The translations under genes were made by a program, and so were the position numbers. This document shows positions 7,155-7,290 of a stretch of DNA of 25,956 nt, piece by piece. How positions within the stretch are numbered: position 1 is the stretch's first letter; each line of letters opens with the position of its first letter. This DNA is from Escherichia coli (GTDB lineage Bacteria; Pseudomonadota; Gammaproteobacteria; Enterobacterales; Enterobacteriaceae), in assembly GCF_003334785.1 (NCBI RefSeq), contig NZ_QOWV01000029.1. One strand, 5' to 3'. Below the pieces are notes generated by a model. It was not told where the DNA came from. It ran no database searches and saw only the letters and a list, made by a program, of their open reading frames with translations.

Positions 7155-7290
7155 CAGGCTCCTTACGGGGTGTCGGGGCGAAGCCCTGACCAGATGGTAA
7201 TTGTAATAGCGTCGCGTGTGACGGTATTACAATTGCACATCCTGTCCCGTTTTTCAGGGCATTATAGCCTGTTATTTTTGTGCATTATAG
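7155..7290. other. oriT: Origin of transfer (oriT), IncI1-type; nick region estimated near 7238-7252
   Basis: Upstream of nikA: inverted repeat GTAATTGTAATA / TATTACAATTGC (7200-7237) followed by CACATCCTGTCC; second inverted repeat GTCGGGGC / GCCCTGAC (7177-7196); direct repeat GCATTATAG twice. Confidence 0.6.

Follow-up and report, generated by a model that had tools for sequence, protein, structure and literature searches.

The intergenic segment at positions 7155-7290 of a 25,956-nucleotide stretch of Escherichia coli DNA (contig NZ_QOWV01000029.1 of assembly GCF_003334785.1; hereafter, the window) very probably holds an intact origin of transfer (oriT) of the R64 type (IncI1, MOBP). The segment lies between two divergent genes, nikA on the left (- strand) and a 111-codon open reading frame (ORF) on the right (+ strand). 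An earlier note, made from the sequence alone, had proposed an IncI1-type oriT at this place and had named alignment with the R64 oriT as a check. When this alignment was run, the 261 nt spanning 7140-7400 proved to be 98% identical (mean column identity) to the oriT region of R64, the IncI1 prototype (NC_005014). The assignment is further borne out by the adjoining genes, which encode a NikA identical to that of R64 and a NikB that is 95% identical, and by an arrangement of repeats and nick region that is that of R64. A search with the 301 nt that surround the site gave matches in 2,656 plasmid records, nearly all of them from Escherichia, Salmonella, Shigella and Klebsiella, and the gene under those matches is annotated as 'IncI1-type relaxosome accessory protein NikA'. 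Given the near-identity with R64 and the number of plasmid records that the region matches, the observation is real and not a chance feature. It concerns a well-characterized element that is already known, and its novelty is nil: work that mapped and dissected the R64 oriT goes back to 1991, and an oriT of this type is present on thousands of sequenced plasmids, so that its detection has little discovery value.

Structure of the site and of the nikAB genes

In R64, oriT lies just upstream of nikA and contains a 17-bp and an 8-bp set of repeats involved in protein binding (PMC3817090). The same layout is found in the window, where inverted repeats and CACATCCTGTCC sit directly upstream of nikA, just as the earlier note had described, the repeats and the nick motif lying 20-95 nt from the gene. 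CACATCCTGTCC occupies positions 7236-7247 of the + strand. Within it, the nick region CATCCTGT (7238-7245, + strand) fits the MOBP consensus (C/T)ATCCTG(C/T), which was derived from RP4 TraI, VirD2 and R64 (PMC3772185), and the nick is predicted to fall between G7244 and T7245. A single A separates the end of the 17-nt repeat (7236) from the start of CATCCTGT (7238), and the nick motif ends at 7244, that is, at 7236 + 8, so that repeat and nick stand 8 nt apart, a spacing equal to that of R64.

The longer inverted repeat consists of a left, nick-distal arm GTAATTGTAATAGCGTC (7197-7213), with T7198 where R64 has C, and of a right, nick-proximal arm GACGGTATTACAATTGC (7220-7236), known as 'repeat A', which is identical to that of R64 and is the expected NikA binding site. 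Its core, AATTGTAATAGCGTC / GACGGTATTACAATT (7199-7213 / 7220-7234), was recovered by a repeat finder as a 15-nt inverted repeat with 93% complementarity. The 17-nt repeat is imperfect at two places, a G.G mismatch (7209/7224) and a T.G combination at the second pair (7198/7235). The 8-bp inverted repeat, GTCGGGGC-GAA-GCCCTGAC (7172-7179 / 7183-7190), contains one G.T pair and lies on the nick-distal side. When 7165-7262 is folded as single-stranded DNA (ssDNA), exactly two hairpins result, corresponding to the 8-bp and the 17-bp repeats, with a folding energy of -26.9 kcal/mol. Shuffled versions of the same segment reach -12.1 +/- 2.2 kcal/mol (z = -6.7), and none out of 200 folds as well.

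From the start of nikA to the end of the nick region, T7198 is the sole difference from R64, in which a C stands at this outer end of the distal arm; further differences are found 3' of the nick, at 7256, 7259 and 7286. Hence, the site shares with the R64/ColIb-P9 oriT and its nikAB 'oriT operon' the repeats, CACATCCTGTCC, the 8-nt spacing and the place upstream of nikA, and departs from R64 at these positions and in the C-terminal ~60 residues of NikB. With RP4/RK2, an IncP system with a TraJ/TraI relaxosome, it shares the ATCCTG nick motif (PMC3772185), but the nucleotide similarity is confined to this motif, the proteins are different and the RP4 repeat is of 19 bp. The locus is not an IncP oriT.

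The nick motif alone is not diagnostic, because YATCCTGY occurs nine times in the whole window when only 2.96 copies are expected, a count that none of 100 shuffles reaches. Seven of these nine copies are on the + strand and four lie within 9.8-11.4 kb, while the bare hexamer is evenly split between strands (12:12); the excess is probably due to chance. The other copies were all inspected as candidates for a second oriT and rejected, a NikA-type inverted repeat being found only beside 7238-7245. An Rfam scan gave no match in or near oriT, and its only matches in the window are to sok (1316-1473) and to the AgrB antisense RNA (RF02891; 603-690, + strand), the latter scoring 57 bits where the gathering score is 40.

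Both nikA and nikB are read away from the repeats on the - strand, and the earlier note was thus right to describe nikAB as transcribed away from the site. nikA (6820-7152) encodes a ribbon-helix-helix relaxosome accessory protein of 110 aa that coincides with R64 NikA at 110/110 residues. It starts with GTG, 7 nt after an AAGGAG Shine-Dalgarno sequence that is itself only ~10 nt from the 8-bp repeat. Its product matches the solved ribbon-helix-helix domain deposited as 'NikA' (PDB 2BA3; E = 6.7e-26) and the NCBIfam MobA model (121.7 bits, cut-off 80), together with a weak NCBIfam match to TraJ. nikB (4110-6809) is an uninterrupted 899-codon ORF for a MOBP relaxase, in which Y22 and H158-x-D160...H165-x-H167 are intact and which matches the NCBIfam TraI/MobA(P) relaxase model (413.7 bits, cut-off 250) and Pfam Relaxase (PF03432, E = 3.5e-30). 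Most of its differences from R64 NikB fall in the last ~60 residues. This C-terminal divergence corresponds to a segment of ~0.8 kb (3385-4210) without an R64 counterpart, which holds the last ~60 nikB codons and a 190-aa ORF (3512-4084, - strand).

Homology with R64 and RP4 suggests the following mechanism. NikA would dock on the nick-proximal arm (7220-7236) and position the relaxase NikB. The latter would cut the + strand in CATCCTG/T, at the G7244/T7245 bond 8 nt away from the repeat, and would stay covalently bound through Tyr22 to the new 5' end at T7245. The + strand would then be unwound and exported in the 5' to 3' direction, with position 7245 and those above it entering first and the repeats, nikA and nikB last. 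Once the trailing nick region arrives, the hairpins of the 17-bp and 8-bp repeats may help NikB to recognize it and reseal the circle. Furuya and Komano reportedly assigned the NikA site specifically to the nick-proximal arm in 1997, and their papers are also said to define the exact nick bond and how the repeats act in termination. In RP4, the work of Pansegrau and Lanka is likewise said to have shown that a ribbon-helix-helix accessory protein binds the nick-proximal repeat arm, and that the relaxase operon points away from oriT and is the last to enter. The 17-bp repeats are documented to belong to the site that NikA binds (PMC3817090).

Conservation of the oriT core in natural plasmids

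A more sensitive search with 7155-7300 returned 3,794 records. Large I-complex plasmids match the whole of this query, whereas many plasmids of 1.5-8 kb match only its positions ~12-100. The 18 oriTs aligned here comprise those of the window, R64, five large plasmids with an adjoining nikA or mobA (E. fergusonii, with an IncI1-type nikA, IncI-gamma/K1, IncB/O, IncK2/Z and Citrobacter plasmids), one 118 kb Klebsiella plasmid in which rop adjoins the site, and ten small plasmids. Similarity starts abruptly at GGGTGTCGGGG (~7167) and stops at CACATCCTGTCC(C/T)G (~7249), the flanks of the small plasmids being unrelated. The conserved core delimited in this way (7167-7249, + strand; about 83-85 nt) is, by comparison, the functional unit of the oriT and the only block common to the large I-complex and the 1.5-8 kb Col-type plasmids. 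Since nothing but this ~83-nt block is shared, it can be regarded as the unit that selection keeps, and we take it to coincide with the ~90-bp minimal oriT of R64. The range put forward in the earlier note (7155-7290) takes in this core and roughly 40 nt of nikA-side promoter region.

The components of the core evolve in distinct ways. CACATCCTGTCC is invariant in all 18 oriTs, and the 8-bp repeat is almost invariant, with five of its eight pairs constant and 97% of cells paired. The 17-bp repeat covaries, with two-sided changes at 8 of 16 pairs. Its cells are paired in 93% of cases, a share that drops to 33-47% once the partners are shifted by 1-3 columns. In a covariation test, the observed values were reached in 0/500 shuffles for four of five measures and in 5/500 for the remaining one, further pair types. 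Changes in its two arms go together from one NikA type to another. Such a pattern would be expected if the long repeat acted as the specificity element for the cognate NikA variant, and if the nick region and the short repeat were read by a conserved partner. The T.G combination created by T7198 at the second pair is present in 6 of the 18 natural oriTs, the window included, and it is therefore unlikely that this substitution disables the site.

The core by itself is also seen on many small Col-type plasmids, some of which carry it beside rop and some beside a nikA-like mobA, and which can be viewed as natural oriT hitchhikers. Small Col-type plasmids such as pEC156 and pKPN2, and the nikA-bearing NTP16/pCERC7/pU302S group, resemble the window plasmid in the core, the invariant nick region and the 8-bp repeat, and are mobilized by I-complex helpers. 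They have no relaxase, and some of them no nikA, and are thus wholly helper-dependent, whereas the window has both nikA and nikB in cis. Mobilization by R64drd11 has been reported for the R64-like oriT of one small plasmid (PMC4743918).

Decay around the module and alternative roles of the site

Beyond nikB, R64 has trbABC, and on the other side of its oriT a leading region of ~16 kb that includes ardA, psiAB and ssb; the window has lost both. The window is collinear with R64 from 4210 to 10965, that is, from nikB to R64 position 63194, and then resumes at R64 position 50408, just upstream of impCAB. The junction (10956-10965) corresponds to a deletion of ~12.8 kb with respect to R64 (50409-63193), and has removed ardA, psiA, psiB and ssb, one parB-like gene, one klcA-like antirestriction gene and one DNA methylase gene, together with two of the three ssi/Frpo repeats. 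As a result, the canonical IncI1 leading region, with ardA, psiA/psiB and ssb within ~12 kb of oriT and three ssi/Frpo repeats, is absent, and impCAB is brought within ~4 kb of the nick. The deletion junction is found in only 3 of 72,556 PLSDB plasmid records, whereas more than 4,300 contain one half of it or the other. A comparable loss is known in the I-complex plasmid pO111-CRL115, which lacks a 9.7 kb leading block with ardA-psiAB-ssb and also keeps one Frpo-type repeat near oriT, and in which transfer under laboratory conditions was not measurably affected (PMC3817090). The pO111-CRL115 deletion, however, lies between Frpo repeats, whereas here a small ORF (R64 63194) is joined to the region upstream of impC (50408). 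Recombination between Frpo repeats, which has been proposed for pO111-CRL115, was considered for the window deletion as well and discarded, since the junction has no long repeat and only a few shared bases.

On the nikB side, the pnd/trbABC segment is reduced to remains (1316-3384) in which a trbA stub is joined to the 3' part of trbC, with ~4 kb deleted, and this trb remnant is split by an IS3-family insertion sequence (IS) at ~1955-3267 (ORF 2025-3233). A complete sok-type antisense RNA of the pnd system survives (1316-1473, - strand). The window thus lacks the intact trbABC that adjoins nikB in self-transmissible IncI1 plasmids, a set of genes that a statement cited within PMC9412624 gives as essential for I1/R64 transfer.

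Several considerations weigh against an intact oriT. Nicking, NikA binding and transfer are attributed to the site by homology, and the exact nick bond and the NikA-site assignment are drawn from secondary sources. T7198 makes one pair of the longer repeat weaker, and the last ~60 residues of NikB are unlike those of R64. Moreover, the decay of the surrounding transfer genes could mean that selection on oriT lapsed recently. The alternative that fares best, albeit still an improbable one, is that the site is an R64-type oriT by descent that no longer works, within a module that decays after the loss of its transfer apparatus. The deletion and IS disruption of trbABC beside nikB, the loss of the leading region and the divergent NikB C-terminus are all compatible with such a relic, as is the condition of the public plasmids opened for comparison, which are full of IS elements and devoid of a mating-pair system. 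Nonetheless, a decaying module would hardly be expected to maintain a core that differs from R64 at one tolerated position only, an identical NikA and a nikB of 899 uninterrupted codons with its catalytic motifs. Furthermore, oriT-nikAB blocks, and even bare R64-like oriTs, are mobilized in trans.

A second alternative, and a very improbable one, is that control of nikAB, through an operator or a 5'-leader structure, is the main task of the repeats, with transfer initiation being secondary or absent. Two perfect TATAAT boxes are found 17 nt apart on the nikA-coding strand just past the nick (7266-7261 and 7289-7284, - strand), within direct repeats GCATTATAG. They are candidate -10 elements of nikAB, and the region that contains them is highly conserved in large I-complex plasmids, with the proximal box kept, and absent from small-plasmid oriTs. 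A consensus scan of the - strand over 6900-7900 gave no sigma-70-like -35/-10 site, and the boxes have no recognizable -35 element; their assignment as nikAB promoter elements is thus tentative. As the only - strand TATAAT boxes lie beyond the nick, and the Shine-Dalgarno sequence is ~10 nt from the repeats, the nikAB transcript must run through the latter. With these boxes as its promoter elements, the mRNA would start next to the nick and have a leader that includes both oriT hairpins. Ribbon-helix-helix accessory proteins, in addition, are often autorepressors (PMC4175270). A purely regulatory role is nevertheless excluded by the presence of the core on small plasmids without nikA or nikB downstream, where it cannot regulate nikAB, and by the ability of one such nik-less copy to support mobilization by R64drd11 (PMC4743918). 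Autoregulation of nikAB may coexist with function of the site as an oriT.

Transfer polarity, leading side and mobilization

The ATCCTG motif is located on the + strand and has the repeats on its 5' side, from which it follows that the DNA above 7245 should enter the recipient first and nikAB last. The + strand would hence be the transferred strand, with a leading end that, by homology, starts at ~7245. Relaxase genes typically reside in the lagging region (PMC11541004). In R64, the leading genes are found on the side of oriT away from nikA (ardA at 61.4 kb, psiA/psiB at 59.2-60.4 kb and ssb at 56.3 kb) and are coded on the + strand of the record, of which the ATCCTG strand is the - strand. 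This orientation implies that the transferred strand is their template, which is what single-strand promoters require (PMC12672017; PMC11541004). The orientation of the window is consistent with this polarity, since its DUF4942 and Rpn genes are on the - strand and an ssi-like repeat is present at 8701-9031. The earlier note had deduced that sequence from about 7280 upward is the leading region. The direction is upheld by the strand of ATCCTG and by the orientation of the R64 leading genes, but the predicted nick at G7244/T7245 moves the start to ~7245, and the term leading region applies here only in a positional sense, given that the canonical ardA-psiAB-ssb block has been deleted. A reversed polarity, in which the - strand is nicked and nikAB enters first, would be conceivable insofar as the nicked strand is deduced here from sequence, but it merits practically no credence, with the MOBP motif ATCCTG on the + strand only and the repeat 5' of it, as in RP4 and R64, and with the R64 ardA, psiB and ssb genes opposite nikAB and templated by the ATCCTG strand.

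On the leading side, the first gene templated by the transferred (+) strand is the DUF4942 gene (7805-8653, - strand), which is collinear with R64 65547-66395. Upstream of it lies the ssi/Frpo-like repeat (8701-9031, + strand), a candidate single-strand promoter. R64 contains three direct repeats of ~330 nt, one upstream of each of ssb, an ORF at 62.6 kb and the DUF4942 gene. In both number and position they agree with ssi1-3 of ColIb-P9, which are class 1 ssDNA promoters (PMC12672017). The repeat of the window is the oriT-proximal copy, with 97% identity to its R64 counterpart and 81% and 80% to the other two; it also shows a weak match to the F leading region and folds as ssDNA with z = -5.7. 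It is probably a class 1 single-strand promoter (ssi/Frpo).

The first ORF of the leading side encodes 111 aa (7385-7720, + strand), is divergent from nikA and is preceded by a promoter-like site (7323-7352). It is labeled 'molybdopterin-guanine dinucleotide biosynthesis protein MobC' in RefSeq and 'hypothetical' in R64. Since it has no NCBIfam or Pfam match, the 'MobC' label looks like a naming artefact. A GC hairpin, GCAGGGC-GCA-GCCCTGC (7310-7326), is located 66 nt to the leading side of the nick and resembles the 8-bp oriT repeat (GGGCGAAGCCCTG vs GGGCGCAGCCCTG). IncI1, I-gamma/K1, B/O and K2/Z plasmids keep it, a single compensatory change being seen in the E. fergusonii plasmid, and a 1-nt deletion leaves it imperfect in R64.

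Three public plasmids (NZ_AP022179.1, NZ_CP069544.1 and NZ_MW646305.1) match the window without a difference, either at oriT or at the deletion junction. The first two are 100% identical to it over 7100-7400. They are typed IncFIA, and MOB-suite classes them as 'mobilizable', having two MOBP relaxases but no mating-pair formation system (MPF). Both are IS-rich and carry the EAST1 toxin gene astA. A precedent for this configuration is the IncR plasmid pST1023, which was made mobilizable by an IncI1 oriT-nikAB block (PMC9412624). Like the window plasmid, pST1023 bears an I1 relaxosome module on a replicon that does not transfer itself, and its mobilization by helpers was demonstrated experimentally; unlike it, pST1023 has kept ardA, psiAB and trbABC. 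With trbABC destroyed, and with the opened public plasmids typed as 'mobilizable' without a mating-pair system, a helper would be needed for the channel. The oriT-nikAB segment is thus probably a mobilizable module and not a self-transmissible one, and would most likely function only where a co-resident conjugative plasmid provides the channel.

The practical value of the site lies in annotation, since both the transferred strand (+) and the base that enters first (~7245) can be assigned from it. The lost leading-region cargo and the decayed transfer genes merit an annotation note and not a follow-up program. From a biological standpoint, a plasmid whose own transfer genes are gone would remain mobilizable in principle, which is relevant given the presence of astA on the two public plasmids, and the protective genes that usually enter early are missing in this lineage. 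Here we tentatively suggest, as a conjecture more doubtful than probable, that this rare lineage may be a stable 'relaxase-in-cis hitchhiker', an IncFIA-type plasmid with a working I1 oriT-nikAB that relies on an I-complex helper for the channel and for the anti-restriction and SOS-inhibition cargo it has shed. If this were true, the first genes to enter the recipient would be DUF4942 and the Rpn genes, driven by the single ssDNA promoter that has been retained, and the lineage would constitute a natural experiment on the dispensability of the ardA-psiB-ssb block.
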